This document shows positions 30,008 to 56,139 of a DNA stretch of 57,679 nt, piece after piece (the first letter of the stretch is position 1; the number at the start of each line of letters is the position of its first letter). The position numbers and the translations under genes are program-made. The notes beneath the pieces are model-generated. The model searched no databases. It was not told where the DNA came from and saw only the letters and a program-made list of their open reading frames with translations. This DNA is from a bacterium (GTDB lineage Bacteria > UBA10199 > 2-02-FULL-44-16 > DYJF01). The DNA lies in assembly GCA_041739675.1 (NCBI GenBank), contig JBGSNL010000053.1:1-57679 (forward strand), read 5' to 3'.

Positions 30008-30828
30008 TGGAATCCCTCTATCTCCCCGAACTCGCAACTATCACAAAAATAGCCGCTCAAACGGCCGGCGAAAAGTTTTTTGAGATAAAATTCGACTCGG
30101 GCCGCGACCTTGGGCACAAGCCCGGCCAGTTCGTCGAGGTCTCGGTCTTCGGCATCGGAGAGGCGCCGATTTCCGTTTCTTCGTCCCCGACGAAGAAGGG
30201 TTCGTTCGAACTTGTGGTCCGCAAGGTCGGGAACGTGACCGGCGCCATGCACGGGATGAAACCCGGCGCGAAAGTCGGAATCCGCGGTCCGTTCGGCACC
30301 AACTTCCCCTATGAGGAAACCAGGGGAAAAGATCTCCTCTTCGTCGCAGGCGGCATAGGACTCGTGCCGGCAAGATCGTTCATCAATTACGCGCTTGATA
30401 ACCGAAAGGATTACGGCCGCGTTATCGTCATGTTCGGCTGCCGATCTCCGAAGGAGAGGCTCTTCGCGGATGAGCTTGCAGCATGGGCAAAGCGCGAAGA
30501 CATGGAATTTTTGGAGACGGTTGACAAAAAACTCGACGAACCGTGGGACGGAAACTGCGGCGTCATCACTACCCTCTTCCCCAAGATAAAAATCAATCCG
30601 GCAATGACGAATTGCATCGTGGTGGGGCCGCCCATAATGTACCGCTTCGTCCTCAAAGAGGCGCTCGATAAACAGATCCCCAAGAGCCAGATTTTCGTTT
30701 CTCTCGAGCGGCGCATGAAGTGCGGCGTGGGAAAATGCGGCCACTGCCAGATCAACGGCATCTACTGCTGCCAGGAAGGTCCGGTTTTCAAATATTCAGA
30801 CATCCAAGGACTCGAGGAAGCGCTATGA
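30007..30828 (+). CDS. group 3b sulfhydrogenase gamma (FAD/NAD(P)-binding) subunit
   Basis: PGQF, GEAPIS, RGPFG, AGGIGL, ERRMKCGVGKCGHC...CQEGPVF. Confidence 0.92.
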   Translation: MESLYLPELATITKIAAQTAGEKFFEIKFDSGRDLGHKPGQFVEVSVFGIGEAPISVSSSPTKKGSFELVVRKVGNVTGAMHGMKPGAKVGIRGPFGTNFPYEETRGKDLLFVAGGIGLVPARSFINYALDNRKDYGRVIVMFGCRSPKERLFADELAAWAKREDMEFLETVDKKLDEPWDGNCGVITTLFPKIKINPAMTNCIVVGPPIMYRFVLKEALDKQIPKSQIFVSLERRMKCGVGKCGHCQINGIYCCQEGPVFKYSDIQGLEEAL

Positions 30829-31565
30829 CAAAACCCAGGATCGCATTTTTTGATTTCGCAAGCTGCGAGGGAGATCAGCTGCAGATCGTGAACCTCGAGG
30901 AGAAACTCCTTGAACTCCTGCAGCACGTCGATGTCGTGAGCTTTCGCGAGGCGATGAAGGAGCATTCGGACAATTACGACATCGCCTTCGTGGAGGGCTC
31001 CTGCACGAGAAAATCCGACGAGGAGCGCCTGAAAAAGATTCGCGCGAACGCCAAGATCGTCGTGGCCCTCGGGGCGTGCGCGTCGATCGGCGGGCCCAAT
31101 TGTTTCGGCTACACAAGACCTCTCGATCAGATGCGAAAGGAAGTTTACGGTGACAAGGCCGACTGGTACGAGACCTATCCTCCAAGGCCCATAGATGCTG
31201 TGATTCCGGTCGAGTATAAGCTCCCCCAATGCCCCATCAACAGGGACGAGTTTTTGGCCCTTTGCAAGGCGCTTCTCACTGGCCAGAAGTTTTCGCTGCC
31301 GAATTATCCGGTCTGCACCGATTGCAAGCTGGCCGAAAATGTCTGCGTGTTCGAAAAGGGGATGAGCTGCGTGGGCCCTGTCACGAGAGCCGGCTGCGGC
31401 GCGTGCTGCGTCACGGAGGGGGCGGTCTGCTGGGGATGCCGCGGTTTGCTCGACGATCCGAACAAGGATTCGCACCGCGAGGTGCTTGAAAAATACGGTC
31501 TCACGGTGGACGAGGTGAAGGCCAAATTTAATCTCTACTTTGCATATCAGGAGAACCAGAAATGA
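30825..31565 (+). CDS. hydD: group 3b [NiFe] hydrogenase small (delta) subunit
   Basis: SCEGDQ, VEGS, GACA, PQCP, CVGPVTRAGC, CWGCRG. Confidence 0.9.
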   Translation: MTKPRIAFFDFASCEGDQLQIVNLEEKLLELLQHVDVVSFREAMKEHSDNYDIAFVEGSCTRKSDEERLKKIRANAKIVVALGACASIGGPNCFGYTRPLDQMRKEVYGDKADWYETYPPRPIDAVIPVEYKLPQCPINRDEFLALCKALLTGQKFSLPNYPVCTDCKLAENVCVFEKGMSCVGPVTRAGCGACCVTEGAVCWGCRGLLDDPNKDSHREVLEKYGLTVDEVKAKFNLYFAYQENQK

Positions 31566-32863
31566 GCGCCTCAAATCTGAACATAAATCTTCATTATATA
31601 ACGCGCGTTGAAGGACACGGAAACATCGTCGTCGACGCGAAAGACGGCAAGCTCGAAAAGATACAGTGGCAGGTTCCCGAGGCGCCGCGCTTTTTTGAAG
31701 CGATGGTGATCGGGCAAAAATGGGACGTCGTGCATCACATCACGTCGCGCATCTGCGGCATCTGTTCCATCGGCCACACGCTGGCGTCCGTGAAGGCGAC
31801 CGAAGCCGCAATGGGAATCAAGGTCTCGGAACAGACCCTGGATCTCCGCCGCCTTGCAATCCATGCGGAAAATCTCCAGAGCCATGTCCTTCATATCGGC
31901 TATCTCGCCCTTCCGGATCTTCTGGGCGTGGGCTCGGTTATCCCGCTCGCATCTTCGCATCCCGAAGAGGTGAAGACGGTCGTGCGTCTGCACCGCCTCG
32001 CGAATGAGATGAGCGATCTGGTGTGCGGAAGGACGACCCACCCGCAACGGCTCATCCCGGGCGGATTTGCAAAGTTGCCGACGGAAGATCAGTTGGAAAA
32101 TCTCAAAAAGCGCCTGCTCACCGCAGGACCCGACATCGTTACGGTGGGAAAACTGGTTAAAGCGCTCGCGCCCAACCTGCCCTCCTTCACTCGCGAAACC
32201 GAATACGTCGGTCTCACGTGCGACACCGAGTACGCGTTGTACGACGGCGATCTCGCATCGACGGACGGCGGCCGCGAACCGACGAAGAATTATCTCTCAT
32301 GGACGAACGAGTATCTGGTTCCCCACTCCACCGCAAAGTACACGAAACGTAAACGCGAATCACTCATGGTGGGCGCCCTTGCGCGCTTCAACCTGAACCA
32401 CAAACAGCTCACGAATAATGCCCAGGCCCTCGCGAAGGATCTGGGGCTCGTCGCTCCGTGCTACAATCCTTATATGAACACGGTGGCCCAGCTTGTGGAA
32501 GTGGCGCACGGCTTTGAAGATGCGATAAAAATAATCGATAAGCTCGTTAAGAATGGCATCAAAAGCGAGCTTCCCGATGTCAAACCCAGAGCGGGTCAGG
32601 GCGCGGGCAGCGTTGAAGTACCCCGCGGCATACTGATCCACGACTACACCTATGATTCGAATGGCATCTGCACAAAGGCCAATTGCATAATACCCACGAA
32701 CCAGAACCACGCGAACATCCAGCTCGATATGGAGGCGCTCGTGCCGCAGATCATGGCCAAGCCGCAGAAGGAAGTGGAGCTGGCGCTTGAGATGCTCGTG
32801 CGTGCTTACGATCCGTGCATCTCCTGCTCTACGCACTATCTCAAAGTGGAATTCAAAAAGTGA
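31562..32863 (+). CDS. hydA: group 3b [NiFe] hydrogenase large (alpha) subunit
   Basis: TRVEGHG, L1 RICGIC, L2 DPCISCSTH plus a cleavable tail. Confidence 0.95.
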   Translation: MSASNLNINLHYITRVEGHGNIVVDAKDGKLEKIQWQVPEAPRFFEAMVIGQKWDVVHHITSRICGICSIGHTLASVKATEAAMGIKVSEQTLDLRRLAIHAENLQSHVLHIGYLALPDLLGVGSVIPLASSHPEEVKTVVRLHRLANEMSDLVCGRTTHPQRLIPGGFAKLPTEDQLENLKKRLLTAGPDIVTVGKLVKALAPNLPSFTRETEYVGLTCDTEYALYDGDLASTDGGREPTKNYLSWTNEYLVPHSTAKYTKRKRESLMVGALARFNLNHKQLTNNAQALAKDLGLVAPCYNPYMNTVAQLVEVAHGFEDAIKIIDKLVKNGIKSELPDVKPRAGQGAGSVEVPRGILIHDYTYDSNGICTKANCIIPTNQNHANIQLDMEALVPQIMAKPQKEVELALEMLVRAYDPCISCSTHYLKVEFKK

Positions 32864-33336
32864 AACCGATAGCGATCATAGGAGTGGGCAATTCCCTGAT
32901 GGGCGACGAGGGTGTGGGCATCCACGCCACGAAAAGCCTGCGCAAGGAGTTGAAGCGCGATGATTGCGACATAATCGACGCTGGCGTCCCCTCCATGGCC
33001 CTTCTCCACATGCTTGAGGGAAGACGGCTCGTCTTCATAATAGACTGTGTCGACTTCGGGGGGAGCCCCGGAGAGATGGAAATCTTCCACCCCGAAGAGG
33101 TGAAGCAGGAGGAGAATTCAGAAATTTCGCTTCATGCAACCGATCTTTTAACAACTCTTGATGTCGGCAAAAAGATCGGCATGGAGCTTCCCCCCATCTG
33201 GATCATCGGCATTCAGCCCGACAGGATCGAGCAGACCATGGAACTATCCGAGGAAGTGGAAGGCGCTCTGGCCGATCTTCCCGAACTCATCGAGAACTTC
33301 ATTTCCACCGGCACGGAATCAATTGTTAACCATTGA
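32860..33336 (+). CDS. hydrogenase maturation protease
   Basis: IIGVGNSLMGDEGVG, IDCVD, SLH, IGIQP; GTG overlaps the large-subunit stop. Confidence 0.93.
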   Translation: MKPIAIIGVGNSLMGDEGVGIHATKSLRKELKRDDCDIIDAGVPSMALLHMLEGRRLVFIIDCVDFGGSPGEMEIFHPEEVKQEENSEISLHATDLLTTLDVGKKIGMELPPIWIIGIQPDRIEQTMELSEEVEGALADLPELIENFISTGTESIVNH

Positions 33337-39300: not shown

Positions 39301-39521
39301 TTTTCCACAAACTCCGGCGTCACCGGCAAAAAATAAACACTGTCGGCAAAACCTTCCGACGTCTGGATCGTCGCGATGTTGGGATTTACGAGGACAGTTG
39401 CGATTCCTTCCTCTTTGAGCGCTTTGATCGCCTGGCTACCGGAGTAATCGAACTCGCCGGCCTCGCCGATCTTCAAGGCACCCGAACCAAGCACCAGAAC
39501 TTTTTTCAGTTTATTCGTCAT
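36330..39521 (-). CDS. carB: carbamoyl-phosphate synthase large subunit
   Basis: GEFDYSGSQA, duplicated ATP-grasp domains, MGS-like C-terminus. Confidence 0.97.
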   Translation of the reverse strand: MTNKLKKVLVLGSGALKIGEAGEFDYSGSQAIKALKEEGIATVLVNPNIATIQTSEGFADSVYFLPVTPEFVEKVIEKERPDGVLLSFGGQTALNCGVALHRGGVFQKHGVRVLGTPVATIEDTEDRELFCKRLAEIDVPVPKSTAVSTLEDARRAAAKIGYPIMIRIAYALGGLGSGLCVDEKDLTERASAAFSHTKQILVEEFLEGWKEVEYEVVRDAHDNCITVCNMENFDPLGIHTGESIVVAPSQTLTNEEYHRLREVAIRTVRHLGIVGECNIQYALHPKSNEFRVIEVNARLSRSSALASKATGYPLAFVAAKIAIGKSLLEIDNIVTGATKACFEPALDYLVVKIPRWDLKKFRLVSKRIGSGMKSVGEVMAIGRTFEEALQKGLRMLEIGADGLTGGAGIVFEDIEDEIKSPSDERIFAIYQAFKNGMTVDSIHKLSHIDPWFLAKLQNIVAMEDEIASYEGRLLPEVLLLDAKRAGFSDRQIAFAQKSSEKEVRFTRRRLGFKPAIKQIDTLAAEYPARTNYLYCTYNGSEDDVEPAGRGAVMVLGSGAYRIGSSVEFDWCCVNTVQSLRRLGFKTIMVNCNPETVSTDFDECDRLYFEELTFETVLEIYEREMPAGIVLAVGGQVANNLAMRLSDAGVRILGTQARSIDQAEDRHKFSKLLDELGINQPPWEELTKIEDAKEFAAEVGYPVLVRPSYVLSGAAMAVALNDDDLVRFLGKAAKVSHEHPVVISKFIMGAKELEIDGVAKKGELLAYVMSEHVENAGVHSGDATMVVPPQRTYLETVRQVKRIANRVAKALNINGPFNIQFLAKDNDVSVIECNLRASRSFPFVSKVCGTNLIDVATKVMMDWPVPEITLKPFNMEYVGVKAPQFSFTRLKGADPTLSVEMSSTGEVGCIGDDFEEAFLKAMISVGFKLPVKTVLISAGTTENKADFLPYARTLLSMGVKILATDGTAKFLNDHAVKTEVVAWPNEKREGNAEDKIRAGGIDLVINIPKNYQKEELTNGYLIRRAAADFGVPLITNIQLAKRLVESLSRKSFDDLASKAWHEYE

Positions 39522-40600
39522 TTCAATGTTGAAATAAATTCATCGAACAGGAAACCCGTATCAATCGGACCAGGCATCGCCTCCGGATGGAACTGAACGC
39601 TCATTATGGGTTTCGTCTTGTGCCTCAAACCCTCATTGGTCCCGTCGTTCGCGTTTATAAACCAGGGCTCCAAACCTTCCGGCAATGTCTTCTCGTCTAC
39701 TGCATAGCCGTGGTTTTGCGACGTGATGAAACAGCGGTTCGTACCCGCCATCTTGCAAGGCTGATTCTGCCCGCGATGGCCGAATTTCAATTTGTATGTC
39801 TTTGCCCCCGATGCCAGCGCCAGCATCTGATTGCCGAGGCAGATACCGAAAGCTGGAATTCCCGCTTCTATCACCTTGCGCGCGGTTTCAATCGTTGCAG
39901 CGCAATCGGTGGGATCCCCCGGGCCGTTCGAGAAGAGAACACCGTTCACGTCGAGCTTTGTCACGTCGAAGTTCCACGGAACGCGCACCACTGCCATGCC
40001 GCGTCTGATAAGACTTTTTATGATAGTGTTTTTGCAGCCGCAGTCGATGACGGCAATGCGCTTTTTTCCCTCCCCGTAGTTCACAGGCTCCGTCACCGAC
40101 ACCTCGGAGACGACGTGCGTGGGAGGCAGGACAAGATTCGCGCCCTTCGGGTCATCCGTTATCGCCCCCGCCATCACCCCTCGCTCACGGAGCCTCTTTG
40201 CTATGGCGCGCGTGTCCACACCTTCAATTCCCGGGACCCCCTCCTCCGCCAAAAGGTCGGAAAGTCCGCGCTCCGCGCTCCAGTGGTGATGGTAGGCCGA
40301 ATACTGGGAGACAGCGAGCCCCTTGAGATGTATGTGCGTCGACTCGTAGCCGCTTGAAAGCTCGCGCGCAAACTCAGCAGGGACGCCGTAATTACCAATC
40401 AAAGGATAAGTCAAAACAAGGATTTGGCCGCGATATGAGGGATCAGTGAAGGATTCAGGATACCCAACCATTCCGGTATTGAAAACCACCTCTCCCACCG
40501 TTTTCGTTGGGGCACCGAAAGAAAAACCGCCAAATGCGCTGCCGTCTTCCAGAACGAGGAAGCAAGGCTTGCGAACCGGCGGTTTTACATTGGTTTTCAT
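39518..40600 (-). CDS. carA: carbamoyl-phosphate synthase small subunit
   Basis: GEVVFNTGM, SNGPGDP, GICLGNQ, SQNHG, QFHPE. Confidence 0.97.
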   Translation of the reverse strand: MKTNVKPPVRKPCFLVLEDGSAFGGFSFGAPTKTVGEVVFNTGMVGYPESFTDPSYRGQILVLTYPLIGNYGVPAEFARELSSGYESTHIHLKGLAVSQYSAYHHHWSAERGLSDLLAEEGVPGIEGVDTRAIAKRLRERGVMAGAITDDPKGANLVLPPTHVVSEVSVTEPVNYGEGKKRIAVIDCGCKNTIIKSLIRRGMAVVRVPWNFDVTKLDVNGVLFSNGPGDPTDCAATIETARKVIEAGIPAFGICLGNQMLALASGAKTYKLKFGHRGQNQPCKMAGTNRCFITSQNHGYAVDEKTLPEGLEPWFINANDGTNEGLRHKTKPIMSVQFHPEAMPGPIDTGFLFDEFISTLK

Positions 40601-40702
40601 TTAAGTTGTCCTGCCGCCTTTACGCAAAAAAAACGCCATAGTCAACATCATTGACGTGTATTTTTTAGTGTGATAGTCGCCCTTTTTACTACGGAGGAAC
40701 AA

Positions 40703-41275
40703 ATGCGCAAACAGCCAGATATCCAGCGGGAAGGCCATATGGACCTTGGCTTTGTGGACGAGGTGGCCGCCATTCCGGGTGGTGAAAAGATTGTCGACTG
40801 CATACAATGCGGCACCTGTTCCGGATCGTGTCCCACGAGCTTTCTCATGGAGGATTCCCCGCGGAGCCTGATCTACAAGGTCCGCGCCGGCCTCAAGAAA
40901 GAAGTTCTGCAAAGTCCCGACATCTGGCTTTGCACGTCATGCTATCTCTGCTACGTGCGCTGCCCCAAAAACATAAAAGTCACCGACATCATGTACGCCT
41001 TGAAAAGGCTCTCCTGCAAGGACTCGCCGATTCAGCGAAAAGGCTACCATCTGGCAAAATCGTTCATGAAGGTGGTCAACAAGTATGGAAGAAATCAGGA
41101 GACCGAACTCCTGCTTCGCTTCTTCCTTCGGGCAAATCCCATCGGCCTCATACGCAACGCATTCATCGGCCTCAATTTGTTCATCCGCGGCCGCATGCCG
41201 ATCTTCCCCAACAAGATTAAGCAGAGAAAGCAATTCCGGGCGATCGTCGCAAGGGCCGAAACGCTTTCCAACTAA
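40703..41275 (+). CDS. hdrC: heterodisulfide reductase subunit C
   Basis: CIQCGTCSGSCP and WLCTSCYLCYVRCP; GGAGG RBS. Confidence 0.92.
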   Translation: MRKQPDIQREGHMDLGFVDEVAAIPGGEKIVDCIQCGTCSGSCPTSFLMEDSPRSLIYKVRAGLKKEVLQSPDIWLCTSCYLCYVRCPKNIKVTDIMYALKRLSCKDSPIQRKGYHLAKSFMKVVNKYGRNQETELLLRFFLRANPIGLIRNAFIGLNLFIRGRMPIFPNKIKQRKQFRAIVARAETLSN

Positions 41276-41293
41276 TTACAGAAGGGCAAACGC

Positions 41294-42172
41294 ATGGCAC
41301 TCCAAAAAGAATATCTCTACTACCCCGGCTGTTCTCTCCATTCGTCGGCAACAGCCTATGACGATTCGTCGCGCGCGGTACTTTCCGCACTGGGCTCGAA
41401 GGTCGTCGAAATCGACGACTGGAACTGCTGCGGGGCCACCGCCTACATGGCGATCAAGGAGATGACAGCATTCACGATCTCCGCAAGAAATCTAGCGATC
41501 GCCGAGAAAAAAGGCGATCACGTGGTCGCCCCGTGCAGCGGATGCTATGTCGGGCTTTCCAAGGCGAACAACTACATCAAGGAATTTCCCGAGGTCCAAA
41601 AAAAGGTGAACACCGCGCTCGCCGAGGGAGGACTCTCATATAACGGCACCGTGCATGTGAGACACGTCATGGATCTTTTCGTCCACGATCTCGGCGCCGA
41701 CGAGCTCAAGAAATTTATCAAGAAGCCGTTGAAGGATCTCAAGGTCGGCTGCTACTACGGCTGCCAGATCGTCCGCCCGAAAAACGAGATCGACTCTCCG
41801 GAATATCCGACGACGATGGAAAAGCTCATGGAGGCCTGCGGCGCCACCCCAATCGATTTCGTGATGAAGGCCTTCTGCTGCGGCGGCGCAATTCTAGGAA
41901 CCGAAGAGGCAATCGGCGTCCGTCTTATAAAAAATCTTATGCAGTCGGCGAAGAAAAACGGGGCGGAGATTTTGGTCACGCCGTGTCCGTTGTGCCAGAT
42001 GAACCTTGACGCATACCAGAGGCGTGCAGCCAAAAAATATGGAATGAAATTCGACATACCAGTTCTCTACTTCACGCAACTCATCGGTCTTGCGATGGGA
42101 ATTGCGCCCAAAAAGCTGGGAATCGGCAAAGAGATCGTGTCGGCAAAGAGTGTTCTAAAACAGTTTTTATAG
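41294..42172 (+). CDS. hdrB: heterodisulfide reductase subunit B
   Basis: YYPGC, DWNCCG, YYGC, CCGG, CPLCQMNLD (two CCG domains). Confidence 0.94.
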   Translation: MALQKEYLYYPGCSLHSSATAYDDSSRAVLSALGSKVVEIDDWNCCGATAYMAIKEMTAFTISARNLAIAEKKGDHVVAPCSGCYVGLSKANNYIKEFPEVQKKVNTALAEGGLSYNGTVHVRHVMDLFVHDLGADELKKFIKKPLKDLKVGCYYGCQIVRPKNEIDSPEYPTTMEKLMEACGATPIDFVMKAFCCGGAILGTEEAIGVRLIKNLMQSAKKNGAEILVTPCPLCQMNLDAYQRRAAKKYGMKFDIPVLYFTQLIGLAMGIAPKKLGIGKEIVSAKSVLKQFL

Positions 42173-42184
42173 AGGGGAACATCC

Positions 42185-44170
42185 ATGTCACCGAAGATAG
42201 GCGTTTACATCTGTCATTGCGGAACGAACATCGCGGGAAAAGTCGCGATCGACGAAGTCGTCGAGTTCGCGAAAAAACTGCCCAACGTTGTGATGGTCCG
42301 CGACTACAAGTTCATGTGCTCGGAGCCGGGTCAGAACCTCATCAAGGACGACATCAAAAAGGAGAAGCTCGACCGCGTGGTCGTCGCCTCCTGCTCGCCT
42401 TTGATGCACGAAAAGACGTTCCGCACCGCATGTGAAACGGCGGGCTTGAACAAATATCTCCTGCACATGGCCAACATCCGCGAGCATTGCTCGTGGGTGA
42501 CCGAAGAGAACGCCTCGGCTACAGAAAAGGCCAAGGCGCTTCTGCGCGGAGCGGTCGCGAAGGCGGCGCTTCTGGAGCCGCTGGAAAAGAAAGAAGTCAA
42601 AATCCATCCGCATGTCATGGTGATCGGCGGCGGCATCGCAGGCATCCAGGCTGCGCTAGACATCGCAGACAGCGGACGTAAGGTCTACCTTGTTGAGAAG
42701 GAACCCTCCATCGGCGGCCACATGTCGCAGTTCGACAAAACTTTCCCCACCCTTGACTGCGCCGCATGCATCCTCACTCCGAAGATGGTGCAGGTGGGCC
42801 AGCATCCGAACATCGAACTCCTCTCATACAGCGAAGTCGAAAAACTTGACGGCTACGTCGGCAATTTCAAGGCAACCGTCCGGATGAAGAGCCGCTACGT
42901 CAACGAAGAGAAATGCACGGGCTGCGGCGATTGCTGGAACAAGTGTCCCGCCTGGCGCGTTGAAAAACCGAAGGGCGACAAAAAGGTCGTTCACGACGCG
43001 CTGACTCTCGGGCCGCCGAAGGCGATCTACATGCCCACACTTCAGGCGATCCCTGCGGTTCCCGTCATCGACAAGGAATCGTGCATTTATTTCAAAAACG
43101 GAAAATGCCAGATTTGCGTGAAGAGCTGCCCCACCGGCGCCGTCGACCACAAGATGGTCGATGTCGTGCGGGAGATTGAAGTGGGCTCCATCATTGTGGC
43201 GACCGGCTATAAACTTTTCGACGTGACAAAGATGCCGCAGTACGGATATGGAAGATATCCCAACGTTCTGACCGGTCTGGAATTTGAACATCTGAACTGC
43301 GCGTCCGGCCCGACTGGCGGCGCCGTCCTTATGGAAAATGGGCAACCGCCGAAATCGATCGCCATCCTCCACTGCATCGGCAGCCGCGACAAAAATTATC
43401 ATGAATACTGCTCGCGCGTGTGCTGCATGTACGCGCTGAAATTCGCGCATCTCGTGAAAGAAAAAACCGGCGCGGAGGTCTATGATTTCTACATCGACAT
43501 GCGCTCGTTCGGCAAAGGGTTCGAAGAGTTCTACAACCGCCTACTTGAAGAAGGAGTGAGATTTATCCGCGGCAAGGCAGCACAGATTTCAAATGAAGCG
43601 ATCTACCCCGAAGAGGAAGGCAAACTCATAGTCCGCTGTGACGACACGCTTCTGGGCCGCGTGCGCCGCGTGCCGGTCGATATGGTCGTGCTCTGTTCCG
43701 CCATTGAGGCGACAGGCGACTCTCAGGATATGTCCCGCCTGCTGGGGCTTTGCCACAGCAAGGACGGTTTTTTTGCTGAAAAGCATCCGAAGCTCGCGCC
43801 GGTTTCCACGGCGACGGATGGCATCTTTATCGCGGGATGCTGCCAGAGCCCAAAAGATATTCCCGATACGGTCGCGCAGGCGTCGGGCGCCGCAGCACAG
43901 GCAATGATGCTTGCAGCGCGAGGCGCTATCGAAGTCGAGTCGGCAACGGCGCTGATCGACGAGGACCGTTGCACAGGCTGCCGCATCTGCAACGATCTGT
44001 GCCCCTATCACGCGATAGATTTCATCGCCGACGACAAACTGTCGAAAGTCAACGAGGCGTTGTGCAAGGGCTGCGGCACCTGCGTTGCAGCGTGCCCCTG
44101 CTCGGCAATCGCCGCGAGGCAGTTCAACGATGCGCAGGTCCTGGCCGAAATTGAAGGAGTTTTGCAATAA
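42185..44170 (+). CDS. hdrA: heterodisulfide reductase subunit A
   Basis: CHCGTNI, GGGIAG, KTFPTLDCAACIL, CSRVCC, inserted and C-terminal ferredoxin domains. Confidence 0.96.
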   Translation: MSPKIGVYICHCGTNIAGKVAIDEVVEFAKKLPNVVMVRDYKFMCSEPGQNLIKDDIKKEKLDRVVVASCSPLMHEKTFRTACETAGLNKYLLHMANIREHCSWVTEENASATEKAKALLRGAVAKAALLEPLEKKEVKIHPHVMVIGGGIAGIQAALDIADSGRKVYLVEKEPSIGGHMSQFDKTFPTLDCAACILTPKMVQVGQHPNIELLSYSEVEKLDGYVGNFKATVRMKSRYVNEEKCTGCGDCWNKCPAWRVEKPKGDKKVVHDALTLGPPKAIYMPTLQAIPAVPVIDKESCIYFKNGKCQICVKSCPTGAVDHKMVDVVREIEVGSIIVATGYKLFDVTKMPQYGYGRYPNVLTGLEFEHLNCASGPTGGAVLMENGQPPKSIAILHCIGSRDKNYHEYCSRVCCMYALKFAHLVKEKTGAEVYDFYIDMRSFGKGFEEFYNRLLEEGVRFIRGKAAQISNEAIYPEEEGKLIVRCDDTLLGRVRRVPVDMVVLCSAIEATGDSQDMSRLLGLCHSKDGFFAEKHPKLAPVSTATDGIFIAGCCQSPKDIPDTVAQASGAAAQAMMLAARGAIEVESATALIDEDRCTGCRICNDLCPYHAIDFIADDKLSKVNEALCKGCGTCVAACPCSAIAARQFNDAQVLAEIEGVLQ

Positions 44171-44179: not shown

Positions 44180-44617
44180 ATGTTTGAGCCGAAAATTTTG
44201 GGCATTTTTTGCAACTGGTGTTCGTACACGGGGGCGGATCTCGCCGGAACCGCGCGCATCAAGTACGCTCCGAACGTCAGGATCGTGCGCGTGATGTGCT
44301 CCGGCCGCGTGGACAACAATTTCGTCCTCAAGGCGTTTCAGGAAGGGGCCGACGGCGTGCTCGTTGCCGGTTGCCATCCGGGCGACTGCCACTACATCGA
44401 GGGGAATTACAAGACGATGGGCAGGGTCCCTATTTTGAAAGAGATGTTGAAGCAGTTCGGAATCGAACCCGAAAGATTCAGACTTGAGTGGATATCCGCA
44501 TCCGAAGGGGACCGCGTGGCCGAAGTCATTAACAGCATGACCGAGCAGGTGAGAAAACTGGGGCCCCTCAATTGGAAATCAACAACCGACACAAAGGATT
44601 TCAGCCATGTCAGATAA
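44180..44617 (+). CDS. mvhD: hydrogenase [2Fe-2S] subunit MvhD
   Basis: FCNWCSY, MCSGRV, GCHPGDCHY, WISASEG. Confidence 0.95.
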   Translation: MFEPKILGIFCNWCSYTGADLAGTARIKYAPNVRIVRVMCSGRVDNNFVLKAFQEGADGVLVAGCHPGDCHYIEGNYKTMGRVPILKEMLKQFGIEPERFRLEWISASEGDRVAEVINSMTEQVRKLGPLNWKSTTDTKDFSHVR

Positions 44618-45605
44618 AAAATTAAAGCTGGGTTTGTACTGGGGCGCGTCCTGTGGCGGCTGCGATATCTCGACGCTTGAGATCGCGGAGAATATTCTGA
44701 AGGTGATTGAAGTCGCCGACATCGTTTTGTGGCCCTGCGTCGTGGACTTCAAATACGAGGACGTGAAAAACTATCCCGACGGCTACATGGATGTCTGCCT
44801 CTGGAACGGCGGCATCAGAAACAGCGAGACAAAAGAAATAGCTGAGCTCATCCGCAAAAAATCCAAAGTGCTGGTAGCGTACGGCGCATGCTCGTCTTTC
44901 GGCGGCATCCCGGCGCTCGCCAATTTGTATACAAAGGAATCGATTTTTGAACGCGCATACAAGACAACGGAGTCGACGGACAACCCGCAGGGCATTCTGC
45001 CGCAGACAAGCGTGAAGATGCCCGAAGGCGAACTGCACATTCCTGAATTTTACGGCTCGGTCTATCGGCTGAACGACGTGGTCGATGTCGATTATTTCAT
45101 GCCAGGCTGCCCGCCTACGGCGAAGCAGACGTGGAGCGTGATCCAGGCGATAGTCGCCGGAAAGCTTCCGCCAAAAGGTTCGGTCGTGGGTGTAGGCGAC
45201 AAGACAGTGTGCGACGAGTGCCCATTTGAAAAGAAAACTGAAGGCGTGCGCATTGAACGCTTCAAGCGCCCGCACCTTGACAGACCGGACCTGACACCAA
45301 AGCCCGAGCTTAAAAACAAACCGCAGTGTCTGCTCGAGCAGGGTTTTGTGTGCGTCGGTTCGGCAACCCGCTCCGGCTGCGAAGCGCAGTGTCTGAAGGC
45401 CAACATGCCCTGCCGCGGATGCTACGGCCCCGCGAAGGACGTCGAAGATCAAGGTTCGAAGGCCGCCGCCGCGATCGGATCGCTCATCGACACGCAGGGC
45501 AACGAAAAACGCGGCGAAGAGATTGCCGCCCAGATCGTAGATCCGGTCGGCACGTTTTACAGATTCGGTGTCTCAAATTCGCTCCTGAGACGAGCAAAAA
45601 TATAA
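44607..45605 (+). CDS. mvhG: group 3c [NiFe] hydrogenase small subunit
   Basis: SCGGC, GACS, PGCPP, CDECP, CLLEQG, PCRGC. Confidence 0.93.
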   Translation: MSDKKLKLGLYWGASCGGCDISTLEIAENILKVIEVADIVLWPCVVDFKYEDVKNYPDGYMDVCLWNGGIRNSETKEIAELIRKKSKVLVAYGACSSFGGIPALANLYTKESIFERAYKTTESTDNPQGILPQTSVKMPEGELHIPEFYGSVYRLNDVVDVDYFMPGCPPTAKQTWSVIQAIVAGKLPPKGSVVGVGDKTVCDECPFEKKTEGVRIERFKRPHLDRPDLTPKPELKNKPQCLLEQGFVCVGSATRSGCEAQCLKANMPCRGCYGPAKDVEDQGSKAAAAIGSLIDTQGNEKRGEEIAAQIVDPVGTFYRFGVSNSLLRRAKI

Positions 45606-45615: not shown

Positions 45616-47076
45616 ATGAAACGCATTTCAATCGATCCGGTAACGAGACTTGAAGGCCACGGGAAGATAGAAATCTTCTTAGACGACAAAGGCGATGTGG
45701 CCAACGCCTACTTCCAGGTTCCCGAGCTTCGGGGATTTGAGAAATTCGCGGAAGGCCGCCCTGTCGAGGAGCTTCCCCGCATCACGTCAAGAATCTGCGG
45801 CGTCTGCCCGGAGGCCCACATGATGGCCGCCGCTAAGGCTTGCGACGCGGTTTACGGGATCGAACTTCCTTCCACAGCAAAGAAACTTCGCGAACTACAA
45901 TACAGCGCATTTTTCCTTGGCGATCACACGACACATTTTTACGCCCTTGGCGGACCTGATTTCGTGTGCGGACCGGACGCGCCCAAAGCTGAAAGAAATA
46001 TCGTCGGCGTTATAAAGAAAGTCGGCGTCGAAGTGGGCGGAAAGGTTATCAAGACGCGCCGCGAATGCCATGAGGTGGCGCAGATCCTTGGCGGCAAACC
46101 GGTGACCCCTGTCAACGCCATCCCCGGCGGCATGAGCAAGGGGCTGAACAAGGAAGAGCGTGACCGCATCGAAAAAATTGCGCGCGACGGCGTTGAATTC
46201 GGAAAGTTCACACTCAAGGTGTTCGAAGACATCGTTCTGAAGAACAAGGCCTATGTGGATCTGATTCTATCCGATCCTTACACCTTCCCTACATATTATA
46301 TGGGACTGGTTGATGCTAACAACAAAGTAAACTTCTACGACGGAAAGGTCCGCGTCGTGGGCCCGGACGGCAAAGAACATTGCAAATATCAGCCGCACGA
46401 ATACCGCGAGTTTGTCGCGGAGCACGTCGAGCCGTGGACATATTTGAAATTCCCGTATCTGAAAAAGATCGGCTGGAAGGGATTTACTGGCGGCCTGGAG
46501 AGCGGCGTCTATCAGGCAACCCCGCTCTCGCGTTTGAATGCGGCGGACGGCATGGCAACACCACTAGCGCAGGCCGAATACGAGAAGATGTACAAGACGC
46601 TCGGCGGAAAACCGGTGAAGCACAACCTCGCGATGCACTGGGCGCGCGTCATCGAACTAACTTACGCCGCTGAAAGACTTTTGCAGCTCGTAACCGATCC
46701 GGAAATCACGGGCCCTGATTATCGCGCACTGCCCACGAAGATCCCGACAGAGGGTGTGGGAATCGTCGAGGCACCGCGCGGCACGCTGACGCATCATTAC
46801 TGGACCGATGAAAACGGCATCGTCACGAAGGCGAACCTCATCGTCGGAACGACGAACAACCACGCACCGATCTGCATGTCGATCAAGAAGGCGGCGCAGG
46901 GGGTCATCAAGGCCGGCAAACCGGTGACGGACGCGCTTCTCAACATGGTCGAGATGTCGTTCCGTTCGTACGACCCGTGCTACGGCTGCGCCACACACTC
47001 GCTCCCGGGCGAAATGCCGCTTGAGGTAACGGTCTACGACAAGGACAGAAATGTCCTGCACAAGCTCACGCGCTGA
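45616..47076 (+). CDS. mvhA: group 3c [NiFe] hydrogenase large subunit
   Basis: TRLEGHG, L1 RICGVC, L2 DPCYGCATH plus a tail. Confidence 0.95.
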   Translation: MKRISIDPVTRLEGHGKIEIFLDDKGDVANAYFQVPELRGFEKFAEGRPVEELPRITSRICGVCPEAHMMAAAKACDAVYGIELPSTAKKLRELQYSAFFLGDHTTHFYALGGPDFVCGPDAPKAERNIVGVIKKVGVEVGGKVIKTRRECHEVAQILGGKPVTPVNAIPGGMSKGLNKEERDRIEKIARDGVEFGKFTLKVFEDIVLKNKAYVDLILSDPYTFPTYYMGLVDANNKVNFYDGKVRVVGPDGKEHCKYQPHEYREFVAEHVEPWTYLKFPYLKKIGWKGFTGGLESGVYQATPLSRLNAADGMATPLAQAEYEKMYKTLGGKPVKHNLAMHWARVIELTYAAERLLQLVTDPEITGPDYRALPTKIPTEGVGIVEAPRGTLTHHYWTDENGIVTKANLIVGTTNNHAPICMSIKKAAQGVIKAGKPVTDALLNMVEMSFRSYDPCYGCATHSLPGEMPLEVTVYDKDRNVLHKLTR

Positions 47077-47565
47077 ATGAATTCCAAAACGATTATTTTG
47101 GGATTGGGAAACACGATCCTCACCGACGACGGCGCGGGGATCTACGTCGTGCGCGAAATCCAATCGCTAATCACCAATCACCAATCACTAATCACTATCA
47201 AGGAGGCCTCCGTCGGCGGCTTCAACTTCATTGACCTGCTGACGGGTTATGACCGCGCAGTGATCGTCGACGCCATCCACACAAAGGACGGCAAACCGGG
47301 TGAATTCTACGAATTAGACATATCCGCGCTGAAGCCCTCCGCGCGCCTTTCTTCTCTTCACCAGATAGATTTTGCGACCGCCGTGGAGCTTGCAAAAAAC
47401 ATGGGTGTTGCATTTCCCAAAGAGATTGCAATATTTGTCATGGAAGTTGAGGACGAGTTTTCATTCGGCGAGAAGCCAACGCCGGAAGTCGAATCCGCAA
47501 TTCCAAAAATGGCCGAATCGATTGTCGCAAATTTGAAAGAGCGGGGGTGGATAGACCATGCATGA
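47077..47565 (+). CDS. hydrogenase maturation protease
   Basis: ILGLGNTILTDDGAG, IVDA, SLH. Confidence 0.92.
   Translation: MNSKTIILGLGNTILTDDGAGIYVVREIQSLITNHQSLITIKEASVGGFNFIDLLTGYDRAVIVDAIHTKDGKPGEFYELDISALKPSARLSSLHQIDFATAVELAKNMGVAFPKEIAIFVMEVEDEFSFGEKPTPEVESAIPKMAESIVANLKERGWIDHA
47161..47200 (+). repeat. YAATCAC heptamer array within the protease gene
   Basis: CAATCGC TAATCAC CAATCAC CAATCAC TAATCAC TATCA; encodes QSLITNHQSLITI. Confidence 0.8.
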
Positions 47566-47950
47566 ACTTTCAATCTGCCAGAAAATCATAGAGACAATAG
47601 AAAACGAAGCGGTAAAGAACGGGATGTCGAAAGTGAGAAGCGCCATTTTGCGCGTCGGCAAGATGGCGGCGTTCCAGAAGGATCAGCTGGGTTTCTGCCT
47701 CTCCACTTACGAGAAGAGCGAAATGCTTGCCGGAATGACCTTTGAGATCGAAGAGGTGCCGGTGGAACTTGAATGCAACGCCTGCCATCAGCGCTACGTG
47801 GACGCGCGTTTCGACGACGACGAGTTTGCGCACAGCATCGCCCACGCACCGGGACTTTTCATTCCCCCACCCTGCCCGGTCTGCACATCCGACGATGTCG
47901 CGATGATCGCCGGCGACGAACTCACACTTGTATCCATCGACGGCGAATGA
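47558..47950 (+). CDS. hypA: hydrogenase nickel chaperone HypA
   Basis: MHELS N-terminus; CNAC and CPVC zinc sites. Confidence 0.93.
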   Translation: MHELSICQKIIETIENEAVKNGMSKVRSAILRVGKMAAFQKDQLGFCLSTYEKSEMLAGMTFEIEEVPVELECNACHQRYVDARFDDDEFAHSIAHAPGLFIPPPCPVCTSDDVAMIAGDELTLVSIDGE

Positions 47951-48949: not shown

Positions 48950-49366
48950 CTAACTCGTAATCCTGCCCAGCGTATCGGCGGTCTTTGCGGGATCGCTCGT
49001 GGTGAACGCAATCGTTCCCGACGTCTCGCCCGGCGCCGAAGCGGAGTATGAAGCATAGATATTGATCTTCATCTCGGCCAATGCGCCTGTTGCCTTGCGC
49101 AAAATTCCCGGCTTGTTGGGGGCGTTCCACAAAATAGTGGTGTTCTCCTGGACATTGTATCCCGCCTTCGTCAAGAGCTCCCGCGCCTTCTTGTTGTTGC
49201 TCGTGATGAAACGGAACGCAGACTCGTTACCCCAGTCGTAGCTGCAATAGCACTCGATGTTGATGTTGTTCGTTGCGAGCGGTGCCGTCACGCGTGCGAG
49301 CGCCCCAGTCTCGTTTCTTGTGACCACCAACAACTCACTCGTCTTTTGTGTATTGGTATTTGCCAT
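48950..49366 (-). CDS. tandem ACT-domain protein
   Basis: NETGALARV...NINI and NKPGILRKA...KINI repeats; GGAGG RBS. Confidence 0.85.
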   Translation of the reverse strand: MANTNTQKTSELLVVTRNETGALARVTAPLATNNINIECYCSYDWGNESAFRFITSNNKKARELLTKAGYNVQENTTILWNAPNKPGILRKATGALAEMKINIYASYSASAPGETSGTIAFTTSDPAKTADTLGRITS

Positions 49367-49467
49367 ATACACCTCCTTGACCCCCGCTCATATGCCTTGT
49401 GAAAAATTTGGCAACAAAAAAAACAGACGGAAATTGCATCGTGCTGATTTTATTAGGATTCCTTGGA

Positions 49468-50856
49468 TCAGAAATATAAATCGCGCTTGCCGGTGCGGAT
49501 TTCATACAGACGTGCTTGCGTTTCCCTTTTCAGACGGGGGTCGGAAATTTCGCCAAGGTAACGATTGATGAGTTTGCCGCCTGCGTCTTTCGTCCTTCCG
49601 TCCGCATAATCCTCAAGATACTCGGCAAATGTGAGGAGCGCGTTCGGGCGGCAAAAGGTGTGAATGTCACCTTCTTTTGCCAAGCCCATGAATGATTCGC
49701 CAGTGCGGCCCGCGCGATAACACGCGGTGCAGAAACTGGGGATCAGCCCATCTGCCACGGCAGCCCTCACCACTTCACTCAGCGGCCGGTGGTCGTGGGT
49801 TTCGAATTGCGAGACCTGAGACCTGAGATCTGAGACCTGAGACGCGTACCCGCCCGGCGTCGTAATAGAAGCCGCGCTTGCCTGTGAGATTCCAAGCTTG
49901 AACGCCTTCGCGCGGATTTCAGGCGTTTCGCGCGTGGACAAAATCATTCCCGTGTAAGGAACGGCGATCCGCAAGATCGCAATGAGCTTTAAGAAATCGT
50001 CATCACTCACGATGTGTTTGGGTTCATAATTCACTGTCGGCGCCGGACAGAAACGCGGAACGGAAATTGTGTGCGGTCCCACCCCGAGATTTTCGTCCAT
50101 CCACTTTGCGTGTGAAACAAGGGCCATCACTTCGAAACGCCAATCGTAAAGGCCGAAGAGCACGCCGATTCCCAGATCGTCTATGCCGGCTTCAAATGCG
50201 CGCGCGTGCGCGGTCAGCTGGCGGTCGTAGTCGGCCTTCGGACCGCCTTTGTGAACCTCTTCATATGTCTTTCGGTGATAGGTCTCCTGGAACAATTGAT
50301 ACGTTCCGATCTTTGCCGCCTTGAGACGCCTGTAATCGTCCGTCGTCGTCGCAGCGATATTCACGTTCAGACGCCTGATGTTTCCGCGCTCGCTCTGAAC
50401 GGAATAGATCGTCACAATCGAATCGCAGATGTAATCGATGGAATTTTTGTCCGGATCCTCGCCGAACTCGACCAGCACACGTTTGTGGCCCATATCGACG
50501 AGACACTTCGTTTCGGATGCAATCTCTTCCTGTGTGAGTTTTCTGCGGCGGAGCTCCCTGTTGCTCTCATGGAAATTGCAGTACTCGCAGTCGTTGATGC
50601 AGTGATCGGAGACATAAAGCGGCGCAAAGAGCACCAACCTTTCGCCGTAGATCTCGTCTTTGATTTTAGCGGCCGCATCGAAGATCCTTTGAATCGAGAA
50701 AGCATCCGTGGCACTGATCAGGATTGCCGTCTCTTGAAGCGTCAGCCCTTTCTTGAGAAGCCCTTTTTCCACGACGGCCTCAAACGCTTCCTTTGAAGGC
50801 TTTAGCGCCCGGGCAAGACAATCGACGATCTTCTTTTCATCTACAATTTTTTCCAT
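49468..50856 (-). CDS. hydG: [FeFe]-hydrogenase maturase HydG (radical SAM tyrosine lyase)
   Basis: FAPLY-CINDCEYC, LFQETY, GPHTISVPR, and the C-terminal CTAC-X22-C auxiliary-cluster motif that separates HydG from ThiH. Confidence 0.93.
   Translation of the reverse strand: MEKIVDEKKIVDCLARALKPSKEAFEAVVEKGLLKKGLTLQETAILISATDAFSIQRIFDAAAKIKDEIYGERLVLFAPLYVSDHCINDCEYCNFHESNRELRRRKLTQEEIASETKCLVDMGHKRVLVEFGEDPDKNSIDYICDSIVTIYSVQSERGNIRRLNVNIAATTTDDYRRLKAAKIGTYQLFQETYHRKTYEEVHKGGPKADYDRQLTAHARAFEAGIDDLGIGVLFGLYDWRFEVMALVSHAKWMDENLGVGPHTISVPRFCPAPTVNYEPKHIVSDDDFLKLIAILRIAVPYTGMILSTRETPEIRAKAFKLGISQASAASITTPGGYASQVSDLRSQVSQFETHDHRPLSEVVRAAVADGLIPSFCTACYRAGRTGESFMGLAKEGDIHTFCRPNALLTFAEYLEDYADGRTKDAGGKLINRYLGEISDPRLKRETQARLYEIRTGKRDLYF
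49811..49845. repeat. GAGACCT heptamer array within hydG
   Basis: GAGACCT GAGACCT GAGATCT GAGACCT GAGACGC; encodes ASQVSDLRSQVS. Confidence 0.85.
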
Positions 50857-50867
50857 ATGGAAATATT

Positions 50868-52046
50868 TTATACGCTTAAATCCGTTGGAGCGCGGCCTAT
50901 CGAACGCAACAGGCTCACTACCATATCTATGTGTTCCTCAATTTTGATTTCAGTTCCGAAACGGTCAGGATATATATCATATAGTGACCGGTATTTTTCC
51001 GGCGTGACGTTGATCATCAGCGAGTTGCCACCCGCCATCAAGGCGTTTTTGGCGCCGTCAAGTCCCCACACCGTTTCAAGCGCCGTCGTTACAAGTATCT
51101 TGGCATCGGGGTTCATGATGCGCGCGTTCGCAACGGTATCCAGCACCTTCTTGAGTGACGGCGTCTTTTCCCCCGCCAACGGAGTCTCGGGATGCGGAAT
51201 GAAGGGCCCGAACGAAAACATCTCCGCGCCCAGATCGGCGGTCATCTTTATGTCCCTCATGATGTCGTCGTTTTTTTGTCCCGGCAACCCGATCAGAAAT
51301 CCGGTAACGATGAGATAGCCGATATCCTTCAAATTGCGTATCAGGTCAAGACGCCCTGTCATGCTGGACGCAGGTTTTATCTTTTTATAAATCTCTTCAT
51401 TGGACGATTCAAACCGGAGCAGGACACCCCTCGCGCCGGCGTCGTAAAGCCTCCTGTACGCATCCGCGCTTCTTTCGCCCACGGAGACGAAGATGAGAAC
51501 CGGGTGCCTTGCGCGGATCTCTCTTACGATCGCTTCCAGTTTGTCATCGGTGTAATAAGCATCTTCGCCCGACTGGAGAACGAGCGCCTGAAAGCCGTGG
51601 GAGACCGCCTCATCGACAGCGGAAAGAATTTCAGGAATTTCCATCCGGTAGCGTTTAATGTTCCTGTTGCCGCTTCTTATTCCGCAGTACGTGCAATCGC
51701 ACCGGCAGAAGTTTGAAAATTCTATGATGCCGTGGACGCAGCAGGAGTTGTCCTGGCGGGTCTGTCTTATCGCGTTGGCGCGCTCGTAGAGATTTTTCGG
51801 ATTGGAGGCCAGCTTCTTGTCCTGCTCCTTGAGCTTGAAAAAAATGTCTTCCCAGATTTTTAGAACCTCGCTCGCCTCACCTTCGGAAATTTTTCTGATC
51901 AGAAAACCGCCCTGCGCATAGACGTTGTCGCCGACGGCCACGTCTTCAAGCAAGTCGGTGTAAGCCTTGCGCTTCTCCCCGAAATAGTCAACGGTGGCGG
52001 TGCGGCCGCTTATGTCCACAATCCTGCCCGGAATTGCATAGCACAT
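50868..52046 (-). CDS. HypC-HydE fusion: N-terminal HypC/HybG/HupF chaperone domain plus HydE-like radical SAM domain
   Basis: Residues ~1-65 read MCYAIPG...ATVDYFG...VGDNVYAQGGFLIRKISEGEASEVL (HypC). The rest has IIEFSNFCRCDCTYCG, VLQSGE, GPFIPHPETPL, TTAL and NVTPEKYRSLYDIYP (HydE). Confidence 0.88.
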   Translation of the reverse strand: MCYAIPGRIVDISGRTATVDYFGEKRKAYTDLLEDVAVGDNVYAQGGFLIRKISEGEASEVLKIWEDIFFKLKEQDKKLASNPKNLYERANAIRQTRQDNSCCVHGIIEFSNFCRCDCTYCGIRSGNRNIKRYRMEIPEILSAVDEAVSHGFQALVLQSGEDAYYTDDKLEAIVREIRARHPVLIFVSVGERSADAYRRLYDAGARGVLLRFESSNEEIYKKIKPASSMTGRLDLIRNLKDIGYLIVTGFLIGLPGQKNDDIMRDIKMTADLGAEMFSFGPFIPHPETPLAGEKTPSLKKVLDTVANARIMNPDAKILVTTALETVWGLDGAKNALMAGGNSLMINVTPEKYRSLYDIYPDRFGTEIKIEEHIDMVVSLLRSIGRAPTDLSV

Positions 52047-54372: not shown

Positions 54373-56139
54373 ATGAAAAACCGGGGGATAATCACACTTT
54401 TTTTGGGGCTCGTACTTGTGTCGTTTGCTGTTTTTTCGACCGGTTGCGGAGGAGCGGGCGGTCCGGGCGGGCAGATTATCGATCCGGCATTCATTCCGGA
54501 GATTCCCTCGCCTGATATCAGCATCGAGGGCGACACGGACGGCGACGGTATCGTCGACGCCATGGACAATTGCCCCACGGTCGCAAACCCCGATCAACTC
54601 GATATGGATTCCGACGGCACGGGCAATGCCTGTGACAACGATATCGACGGCGATGCCATCCCCAACACTTCAGATAACTGTCCATTGAGAGCCAACAACG
54701 ACCAGGCCGACAGAGACGGCGACGGCCTTGGCGACGTTTGCGACCCGACCTTCGACGATGAAGACGGCGACACGATAGGCGACGGCATAGACAACTGCCC
54801 CACCATTCCCAATCTGGACCAGGCCGATCTTGACGGCGACGGCGTCGGCGACGCATGCGATGACGATGCGGATGGTGATGGAATCATCGACACCGCTGAC
54901 AATTGCCCTGTTATAGCCAATCCGGATCAGACGGATACGGATACGGACGGCTTGGGTGACGCGTGCGATCCTGATGACGACAACGACGGAATTTTGGACG
55001 ATGCTGACAATTGCCGCCTTGTCGCCAATCCCCTGCAGCAGGATAACGACGGCGACGGAACGGGTGACGCGTGCGACACTGATGACGACAACGACGGCGT
55101 GTTGGACGGCGGCGACAACTGCCCCATCGTTGCCAATAACGACCAGTTAGATACGGACGGCGATGGAACAGGCGACGCGTGCGACACCGACGACGACAAT
55201 GACGGCGTGTTGGACGGCGTCGACAACTGCGTGCGTGTTGCAAATCCCCTGCAGGAAGACACGGACGGCGACGGGTTCGGCGATGCTTGTGATACTGACG
55301 ACGACGCCGACGGCATAGTTGATGCCATCGACAACTGCGTTCTCATTGCCAACCCCGACCAGTCCAATATTGACGGCGATCTCTTAGGCGACGCTTGCGA
55401 TCCAGACATGGACGGCGACGGCGTCGACAACGGAGTTGATAATTGTCCAGTAAATGTCAATGCCGGTCAGGAAAACAATGACGGCGACGCGCAGGGCGAC
55501 GTCTGCGATACCGACGACGACAACGACGGCGTCGAGGATGTTGGCGACAACTGCCAGTTCGATCCAAATGCGGGGCAGGAAGACAATGACGCCGACGGCA
55601 TAGGCGACGTCTGCGACCCGGACGATGACAATGACACGGTTCTGGACGGCGCCGACAACTGCCCGTGGCTTGCAAACACTGATCAGGCAAATAACGACGG
55701 CGACGCCTATGATCCGGCCAACCCCAACGCTGGCGGCGATCTCTGCGATGCCGACGATGATAACGACGGCGTACTGGATGACGCGGACGGCTCAGGCACG
55801 ATCGGCGACAACCGCTGCACCGGCTACGGCTCTGCCCTCGGCGGCAACCAGGTCGGCTGTGATGACAATTGCCAGTTCAACTTCAACACGCAGCAGATAG
55901 ACATCGACAGGGACGGACTTGGCAACGTCTGCGATCCGGATATGGACAACGACACCGTCTTGAACCCCGTTGACAATTGCCCGTTCATGGTGAACACGGA
56001 CCAGGTCAACTTCGATCTAACGACCTACGGCCCGTTCCCTGATGGCGATGAATACGGCGATATCTGCGATCCGGATGACGACAATGACACCGTCCTTGAT
56101 TTCTTAGACGAGTGCCCATATGACAGGACCTGCGATTAG
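54373..56139 (+). CDS. thrombospondin type-3 repeat (Ca-binding) lipoprotein
   Basis: FSTGC lipobox; 13 DNC-containing repeats of the type DNCPxxxNxDQxDxDGDGxGDACD. Confidence 0.92.

Follow-up and report, generated by a model that had tools for sequence, protein, structure and literature searches.

HydG and a HypC-HydE fusion as a candidate hybrid route for the maturation of [NiFe] hydrogenases

Described maturation systems and the fusion locus

The current model of [NiFe] site assembly requires at least six Hyp proteins and leaves the anoxic route to CO open. In that model HypC, through Cys2, has been proposed as the sole carrier of Fe(CN)2CO to the large subunit, and HypC His45 is placed near ATP in HypCD (PMC11565642, in its accessible sections). 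In the [FeFe] pathway HydG cleaves two tyrosines to assemble Fe(CO)2(CN)(cysteinate) and uses a second cyanide (CN) to set this complex free, and HydE adenosylates the complex and fragments its cysteine (PMC11256358, accessible sections). Met224 and Met291 of HydE hold the iron, Met224 binding Fe(I), and Arg54, Thr134, Arg155 and Thr269 contact the CN ligands outside the cavity (PMC11826987, accessible sections). Here we describe a locus that joins parts of both pathways. It lies in a 57,679-nucleotide stretch (the window), the whole of contig JBGSNL010000053.1 of the bacterial assembly GCA_041739675.1 (1.91 Mb, 94.64% complete), where a gene encoding a HypC-HydE fusion is followed by hydG.

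The system is real, widespread and conserved, belongs to neither the HypCDEF nor the HydEFG pathway and most likely acts as a hybrid route, a third one, to the [NiFe] iron centre. From gene content and structure models it is likely that HydG and the fusion replace HypC, HypD, HypE and HypF and provide the iron-CN-CO half of the [NiFe] site. Its parts come from families already described, and the novelty would lie in the pathway. A literature search, with subscription journals and preprint supplements mostly outside its reach, found a HypC/HydE fusion only in a 2026 preprint on Ca. Centrionella anaeramoebae (bioRxiv 10.64898/2026.04.11.717937), which mentions a HydE-HypC fusion, termed unusual there, in a [NiFe] operon with a protease, HypA and HypB. 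In the portions of the preprint at hand, this is one clause, which counts the fusion in the 'full maturation machinery', and the main text holds no HydG, mechanism or distribution; the likeness is one of description. The accessible parts of another paper found in the search describe an ordinary hydEFG set, and those of PMC10847431 contain nothing on a HypC-HydE system. The preprint offers no interpretation of the fusion. The initial annotation, made from the sequence of the window, stated that no characterised system of this kind is known to it.

The same annotation read the locus as two minus-strand genes 11 bp apart, the first a HypC domain with Cys2 joined to a HydE-like radical S-adenosylmethionine (SAM) domain and the second a complete HydG. 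Both open reading frames (ORFs) were found at exactly the positions given there, with 11 bases between them. When the fusion was scored as the annotation had proposed, the N-terminus matched HypC and the remainder HydE: residues 1–65 match Pfam HupF_HypC PF01455 with 64.9 bits (cut-off 28.5), the N-terminal part matches TIGR00074 with 53.4 bits (cut-off 48), and residues 80–384 match HydE TIGR03956 with 262.2 bits (cut-off 254.6). Cys2, CRCDCTYC and YDIY were re-read in place. Assignment to PylB, BioB or HmdB was rejected, the scores being far below the family cut-offs (133 versus 348, 84 versus 225 and 61 versus 321). The product of the second gene matches HydG TIGR03955 with 552.1 bits (cut-off 312.15), its three motifs were likewise re-read, and its ThiH score of 279.2 bits lies below the cut-off of 380.

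The AlphaFold2 model of the fusion was built on 126 sequences. Its HypC part forms a beta barrel, then a long helix (residues 55–80) leading to the HydE barrel. The closest solved structure is Thermotoga maritima HydE (E 1e-65), and the ten best Foldseek matches are all HydE, with 36–38% identity at the top ranks; the best solved relative of residues 1–80 is Thermococcus kodakarensis HypC (PDB 2z1c, E 6e-14). Dozens of columns are invariant over the 126 fusion-family sequences, whose identity goes down to about 51%. The fusion is not an assembly accident, because 896 of 1090 candidate clusters of 215–686 aa match its residues 1–140; both Pfam domains are present in all 120 clusters listed.

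The fusion shares with T. maritima HydE (PDB 7o1o, 3cix) the fold, the SAM cluster, the methionine sites and the YxxY motif, but adds the HypC domain and Cys103, changes the CN-contacting residues, forms its own branch and mostly occurs without HydF or HydA. Like HypC, HybG and HupF it has the HypC fold with Cys2 and sits with genes for the large subunit, protease and HypA; unlike them it is joined to a radical SAM enzyme and has Gln in place of His45. The HydG keeps all cluster and dangler-iron ligands of Thermoanaerobacter italicus HydG (PDB 4wcx), but is partnered here with the HypC fusion and [NiFe] genes, and in nine clusters it is fused to both domains.

Distribution of the fusion and of the Hyp and Hyd proteins

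The initial annotation noted that hydF, [FeFe] hydA, hypB, hypD, hypE and hypF are absent from the window, and profile searches extend this absence to the whole assembly: the [FeFe] H-domain and HypD have no match there, and HydF, HypF, HypE and HypB have none over cut-off, while each profile matches in control genomes. tblastn with relatives' HydA, HydE, HydF and HypC, HypD, HypE and HypF gave only partial or weak matches outside the window. The only HypC of the genome is the fusion and its only [NiFe] large subunits are the two of the window. The absence of HydF and [FeFe] HydA sets the system apart from HydEFG.

Thirty carriers were taken from 80 loci by a match starting at the fusion N-terminus; the other 50 match in the HydE part only. 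Their record titles name Omnitrophota, Elusimicrobiota, Planctomycetota, delta- and gammaproteobacterial labels, Altiarchaeota, Woesearchaeota and Nanoarchaeota. Of these carriers, 29/30 have a [NiFe] large subunit, 1/30 HypD and 0/30 HypF (E≤1e-15); HydF exceeds its cut-off in 1/30, an [FeFe] domain is found in 4/30, and HypE exceeds its cut-off in none of the five carriers tested. Thus the profiling of the fusion against hydrogenase content that the initial annotation proposed shows no consistent company of [FeFe] HydA, HydF and a hypCDEF set. The assembly of one carrier, G021, consists of one chromosome of 1.77 Mb that encodes two large subunits, and a 26-kb stretch of it contains the fusion together with hydG, hypA and one of these subunits; over this whole chromosome a profile search found no HypD, HypF, HypE, HypB, HydF or HydA over cut-off.

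Two phyla were sampled more broadly. In the window's phylum a large subunit occurs in 23 of the 87 genomes with a completeness of 80% or more; stand-alone HypC is found in 11, and HypD in exactly those 11. The fusion is found in another 11, with HypD in none and HydG in 10; the genome without HydG is G035, where foreign-looking sequence cuts off the fusion close to the end of a contig. Fusion genomes belong to four families, and family f3 has both routes, in different genera. HypC and HypD are missing from all 64 genomes without a large subunit; HydG occurs in six of these, accompanied by HydF in 5/5 tested (four over cut-off). In a second phylum, sampled as 121 genomes around the carrier G011 with no genome-wide search for large subunits, a HypC match occurs in 41, of which 31 are stand-alone (including one contig-end fragment and one in a 184-aa frame) and 10 are fusions. 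HypD is present in 31/31 stand-alone-HypC genomes and 0/10 fusion genomes, and HydG in 10/10 fusion genomes and 6/31 stand-alone-HypC genomes, with HydF in 4/5 of the latter tested.

Pooled over the two phyla, HypD accompanies stand-alone HypC in 42/42 genomes and the fusion in 0/21, and HydG is present in 20/21 fusion genomes. The fusion route and the HypCD route exclude each other in these two phyla. No p-value is given because kin are not independent. Seven genomes fall in more than one set. HypD was sought in 44 distinct carriers and is present in one. This record (HypD 1/44, HypF 0/30 and none in the own genome) separates the system from the HypCD scaffold with HypEF, whose CN comes from carbamoyl phosphate whereas that of the fusion route would come from tyrosine.

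The initial annotation had HydG and the HydE domain feed the tethered HypC, replacing or supplementing HypDEF. Gene content and structure models support this interpretation, and of the two options the data favour replacement over supplementation. The connection it made with the source of CO in anaerobic maturation is more limited than it suggested. HydG exceeds its cut-off in none of the 11 HypCD genomes of the window's phylum, so the CO of ordinary Hyp users cannot be accounted for by the HydG and fusion route.

Residues, partners and neighbours of the fusion

After removal of duplicates and of rows no longer than 380 aa, the residues of 141 distinct fusions were compared with those of 51 unfused HydE, a set that is mostly Bacillota and so biases the contrast; T. 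maritima HydE numbering was counted by hand from a pairwise alignment. The fusions keep the SAM cysteines, Gln107, Arg159, Glu161, Met224, Thr269, Met291 and the YxxY motif. Three of the four CN-contacting residues, Arg54, Thr134 and Arg155, are invariant in 51/51 unfused HydE and changed in the fusions. The Arg54 position holds His105, the Thr134 position is hydrophobic (Phe, Ile or Val; Phe186 in the window's protein) and the Arg155 position is Gly in 125/141 (Gly207 in the window's protein). Further changes are Gly226 to Ser and Lys309 to Arg. His105 ends a Cys102-Cys103-Val-His105 signature, with the strand at residues 103–109 in the AlphaFold2 model; Cys103 and His105 are each present in 141/141 fusions and Cys102 in 136/141.

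In the model, barrel strands begin at Cys103 and at Gly207, at the end tethered to the HypC helix (a geometry taken from secondary structure). Because these changes sit at the HypC-helix end and the SAM and methionine sites are kept, the entry side of the fused HydE seems unaltered, and the far side seems remodelled, with two added residues that could bind iron. The likeness of the signature to the HypD Cys41-x-x-His44 spacing is weakened by the variation of Cys102 and is not relied on. In a quick tree with midpoint root and three long unfused rows, a single branch separates the fused HydE domains from the unfused ones (36 versus 20 rows; Shimodaira-Hasegawa-like approximate likelihood ratio support 99). 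A divergent fusion type, in G037 (L183:7948-9237) and G035 (L165:235-636), has a more ordinary HypC start and Val at position 102, and is the deepest branch among the fusions.

In the HypC domain, Gln45 is found in 141/141 fusions where T. kodakarensis HypC has His45, and AQGG replaces the His motif. The predicted complex of this domain with the group 3b large subunit scores 0.46 (best of three controls 0.00), its runs sharing at least 70% of contacts and the partners having a predicted local distance difference test score (pLDDT) of at least 71. The mark applied is reached by 116/157 solved pairs and 2/215 mismatched pairs, and only 18 solved pairs and both mismatches score 0.60 or less at that mark; the value of 0.46 is weak support for docking on the large subunit. 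The prediction may reflect merely the textbook pairing, and it adds little because such a model is already in print (PMC11565642, accessible sections).

The cluster and dangler-iron ligand motifs are kept in 21/21 fusion-linked HydG. By its sequence, the HydG of the window would be expected to make Fe(CO)2(CN)(cysteinate) from tyrosine. A specialised, fusion-linked form of HydG was considered and rejected, there being no invariant differences between 21 and 23 rows; nor do the fusion-linked HydG form one clade (three label changes in a quick tree). Within hydG, at about 49811-49842, lies a short tandem repeat that is imperfect; the loop holding it aligns ungapped to 4wcx.

A large-subunit or protease homologue occurs in 19/34 fusion loci, the fusion often lying directly 3' of large subunit and protease genes, and HydG is found within 22 ORFs of the 34-locus fusion set. 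No further conserved partner gene stands beside the fusion among gene clusters present in at least 4/34 loci, which were read from sequence and not all family-scanned. The remaining neighbour clusters are hydrogenase subunits, protease, HypA-like genes, lineage-specific neighbours and antisense shadows. HypC, HydE and HydG are joined in one chain in nine clusters (P0121-P0129) of 727–931 aa, the two named being Nitrospirota; this triple fusion suggests a closed unit. At L094:4194-6026 a 610-aa group 3b large-subunit frame, longer than its relatives and possibly joined to the protease, directly precedes the fusion.

Two genomes, G123 (L191, C2:160000-179999) and G195 (L192, C1:17000-36999), have hydA, hydF, hydG and unfused hydE running into hypF, hypC, hypD and hypE. 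Joint hyd-hyp operons are a plausible setting for the origin of the fusion. The hydG-hydE pair beside hypFCDE was rejected as a HydF-free intermediate, since HydF is present in the same run in both genomes.

The hydrogenases of the window, described initially as two [NiFe] enzymes with their proteases and hypA, were all matched by family profiles (Table 1). The MvhA-like large subunit is 83% identical to one of a HypD genome, G074, and the group 3b-like one is 73–75% identical to those of the HypD genomes G038, G041 and G043. The large subunits of carriers resemble groups 1, 3b, 3c and 4, judged by motif and neighbours with no classifier; both CxxC motifs were found in 38 of 39 fetched, and the 39th, missed by the pattern, is intact in the alignment.

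The ACT-domain pair gene is probably outside the conserved system; the transcript may hold three genes here, as this gene follows hydG on the same strand. A promoter and terminator scan was at chance level (2 versus 2.3 and 5 versus 4.5). Between the two hydrogenase operons lies carAB (36330-40600), though HypF, which normally consumes carbamoyl phosphate during maturation, is absent. Elsewhere the window encodes a protein of 588 aa in which 12 stretches score as thrombospondin type 3 repeats (54373-56139) and three ApbE-family flavin transferases, two of them in tandem (16780-18769, 35249-36295).

Table 1. Positions of the fusion, hydG, their motifs and the hydrogenase-related genes in the window
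Feature	Position	Strand	Remarks
HypC-HydE fusion gene, 392 aa	50868..52046	-	One frame; AlphaFold2 mean pLDDT 93.9, predicted template modelling score (pTM) 0.91; Foldseek top match T. maritima HydE
HypC domain, residues 1-65	51852..52046	-	PF01455 64.9 bits; PDB 2z1c E 6e-14
Cys2, presumed iron-carrying thiolate	52041..52043	-	Kept in 138/141 fusion rows
Cys102-Cys103-Val-His105 signature, start of barrel strand 1	51732..51743	-	His105 at HydE Arg54 position
Radical SAM CxxxCxxC, Cys114/118/121	51684..51707	-	141/141 fusions
Met276 (T. maritima HydE Met224)	51219..51221	-	139/141 fusions
Met344 (T. maritima HydE Met291)	51015..51017	-	140/141 fusions
YDIY (HydE YxxY motif)	50970..50981	-	Both Tyr in 141/141 fusions and 51/51 unfused HydE
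hydG, 462 aa	49468..50856	-	TIGR03955 552.1 bits; PDB 4wcx E 8e-154
hydG CxxxCxxC	50578-50601	-	Re-read in translation
hydG His262	50071-50073	-	Re-read in translation
hydG CX2CX22C	49651-49731	-	Re-read in translation
MvhA-like [NiFe] large subunit, presumed client	45616..47076	+	Four metal cysteines intact
hdrCBA; mvhD; mvhG	40670-44170; 44180-44617; 44607-45605		Operon with MvhA-like large subunit
Hydrogenase maturation protease	47077..47565	+	PF01750 55.4 bits
HypA nickel chaperone	47558..47950	+	PF01155 94.2 bits
Sulfhydrogenase-type (group 3b-like) [NiFe] large subunit, presumed client	31562..32863	+	After beta, gamma and delta genes, 28970-31565
Second maturation protease	32815..33336	+	PF01750 83.6 bits
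ACT-domain pair gene, 3' of hydG	48950..49372	-	Beside fusion in 1/30 loci

Proposed route and alternatives

A candidate order of steps can be drawn. HydG would convert two tyrosines to two CO and two CN and release Fe(CO)2(CN)(cysteinate), an output that would cover the need of one iron. The fused HydE domain would keep the first steps of HydE: it would bind the complex, adenosylate it, strip the cysteine and park the iron on the two methionines. It would then stop at one iron, with no dimerisation, and the single iron would pass to Cys103 and His105 at the remodelled lower end of the barrel. There one CO would be exchanged for the spare CN of HydG and the iron would return to Fe(II). The tethered Cys2 would carry Fe(CN)2CO to the apo large subunit, and HypA and the protease would finish maturation as usual. 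We offer this detailed order, from the single iron through the Cys103/His105 site and the CO/CN swap to Cys2 delivery, tentatively, and it may well prove wrong in part. For the more general scheme we lean towards acceptance: two proteins, or one in triple fusions, would suffice, with CO and CN both from tyrosine and a repurposed HydE converting the [FeFe] synthon on a Cys/His site, and HypDEF and carbamoyl phosphate would be dispensable.

Several observations weigh against these proposals. The known product of HydG is Fe(CO)2(CN), and the [NiFe] site needs Fe(CN)2(CO). Because the fusion-linked HydG are unchanged and not one clade, the CO-to-CN exchange is left without a demonstrated catalyst. 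Cys102 of the signature is Ser in 9/9 triple fusions. HypB is missing over cut-off in the window's genome, G021, G037, G048, G069 and G072, although the window has HypA, so that not all absences in these small genomes are explained by the fusion. In one carrier, G023, HypD is present, on a contig of 2,040 bases. The fusion genome G019 shows no [NiFe] match, and the hydG there is split in two. [FeFe] HydA of catalytic appearance, with H-cluster motifs, occurs in G002 and G030 (frames L202:8493-10214 and L203:1256-3106), and HydF was not found in either. In G040, of the window's phylum, a large subunit is accompanied by neither route. The assemblies are for the most part incomplete. These exceptions, together with G026, in whose [FeFe] match the final H-cluster motif is missing, would be compatible with assemblies that are incomplete or mixed.

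The mismatch of ligand counts could mean that HydG and the fusion supply a part only, iron with CO or free ligands, and that an unrecognised protein does the job of HypD or HypEF. The absence of HypB shows that unrecognised helpers exist, at least for nickel. The lack of a further conserved gene beside the fusion in 34 loci and the closed unit suggested by the triple fusion argue against such a partner, and we regard this alternative as improbable, if the least so of those considered.

The fusion might instead deliver Fe(CO)2(CN) unchanged, to hydrogenases with a non-standard NiFe(CO)2(CN) site. This requires no ligand exchange, and it agrees with the ordinary look of HydG and with the change of three of the four CN-contacting HydE residues. 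The large subunits speak against it. Their metal ligands, Arg355 and Thr379 are invariant in both routes (28/28 aligned rows from fusion genomes and 9/9 from HypD genomes), Arg355 and Thr379 being, as we assume, the partners of the CN ligands. Because these residues are invariant and large subunits are up to 83% identical across the routes, a standard Fe(CN)2CO product is argued for, which leaves the unchanged product a slim chance.

Service to [FeFe] hydrogenases, with HypC in place of HydF, or to both classes, would account for HydA without HydF in G002 and G030, and for the retention of Met224 and Met291, which are used in dimerisation. No [FeFe] domain is found in 26/30 carriers or in the window's genome, G023 keeps a separate, unfused hydG-hydE-hydF set beside its HydA, and the HydG genomes without [NiFe] enzymes do have HydF in 5/5 tested (four over cut-off), so we give this explanation a very slim chance. 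That the genes are relics or have another metabolic job, the [NiFe] enzymes being inactive or matured otherwise, is scarcely credible: broken copies exist (the cut fusion of G035 and the split hydG of G019), but the dozens of invariant columns over 126 sequences down to about 51% identity, the metal motifs intact in the carriers' large subunits (38/39 by pattern, the 39th in the alignment) and the strict tie of the fusion to [NiFe] genes argue otherwise.

If replacement of HypCDEF by HydG and the fusion is true, it would constitute a second biosynthesis of the [NiFe] iron cofactor, from tyrosine through HydG and a modified HydE. It would form a chemical bridge between the two hydrogenase classes, which would share a convertible iron-carbonyl-cyanide precursor, and it would provide a two-gene maturation kit. 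Genomes without hypDEF need not then have dead hydrogenases.

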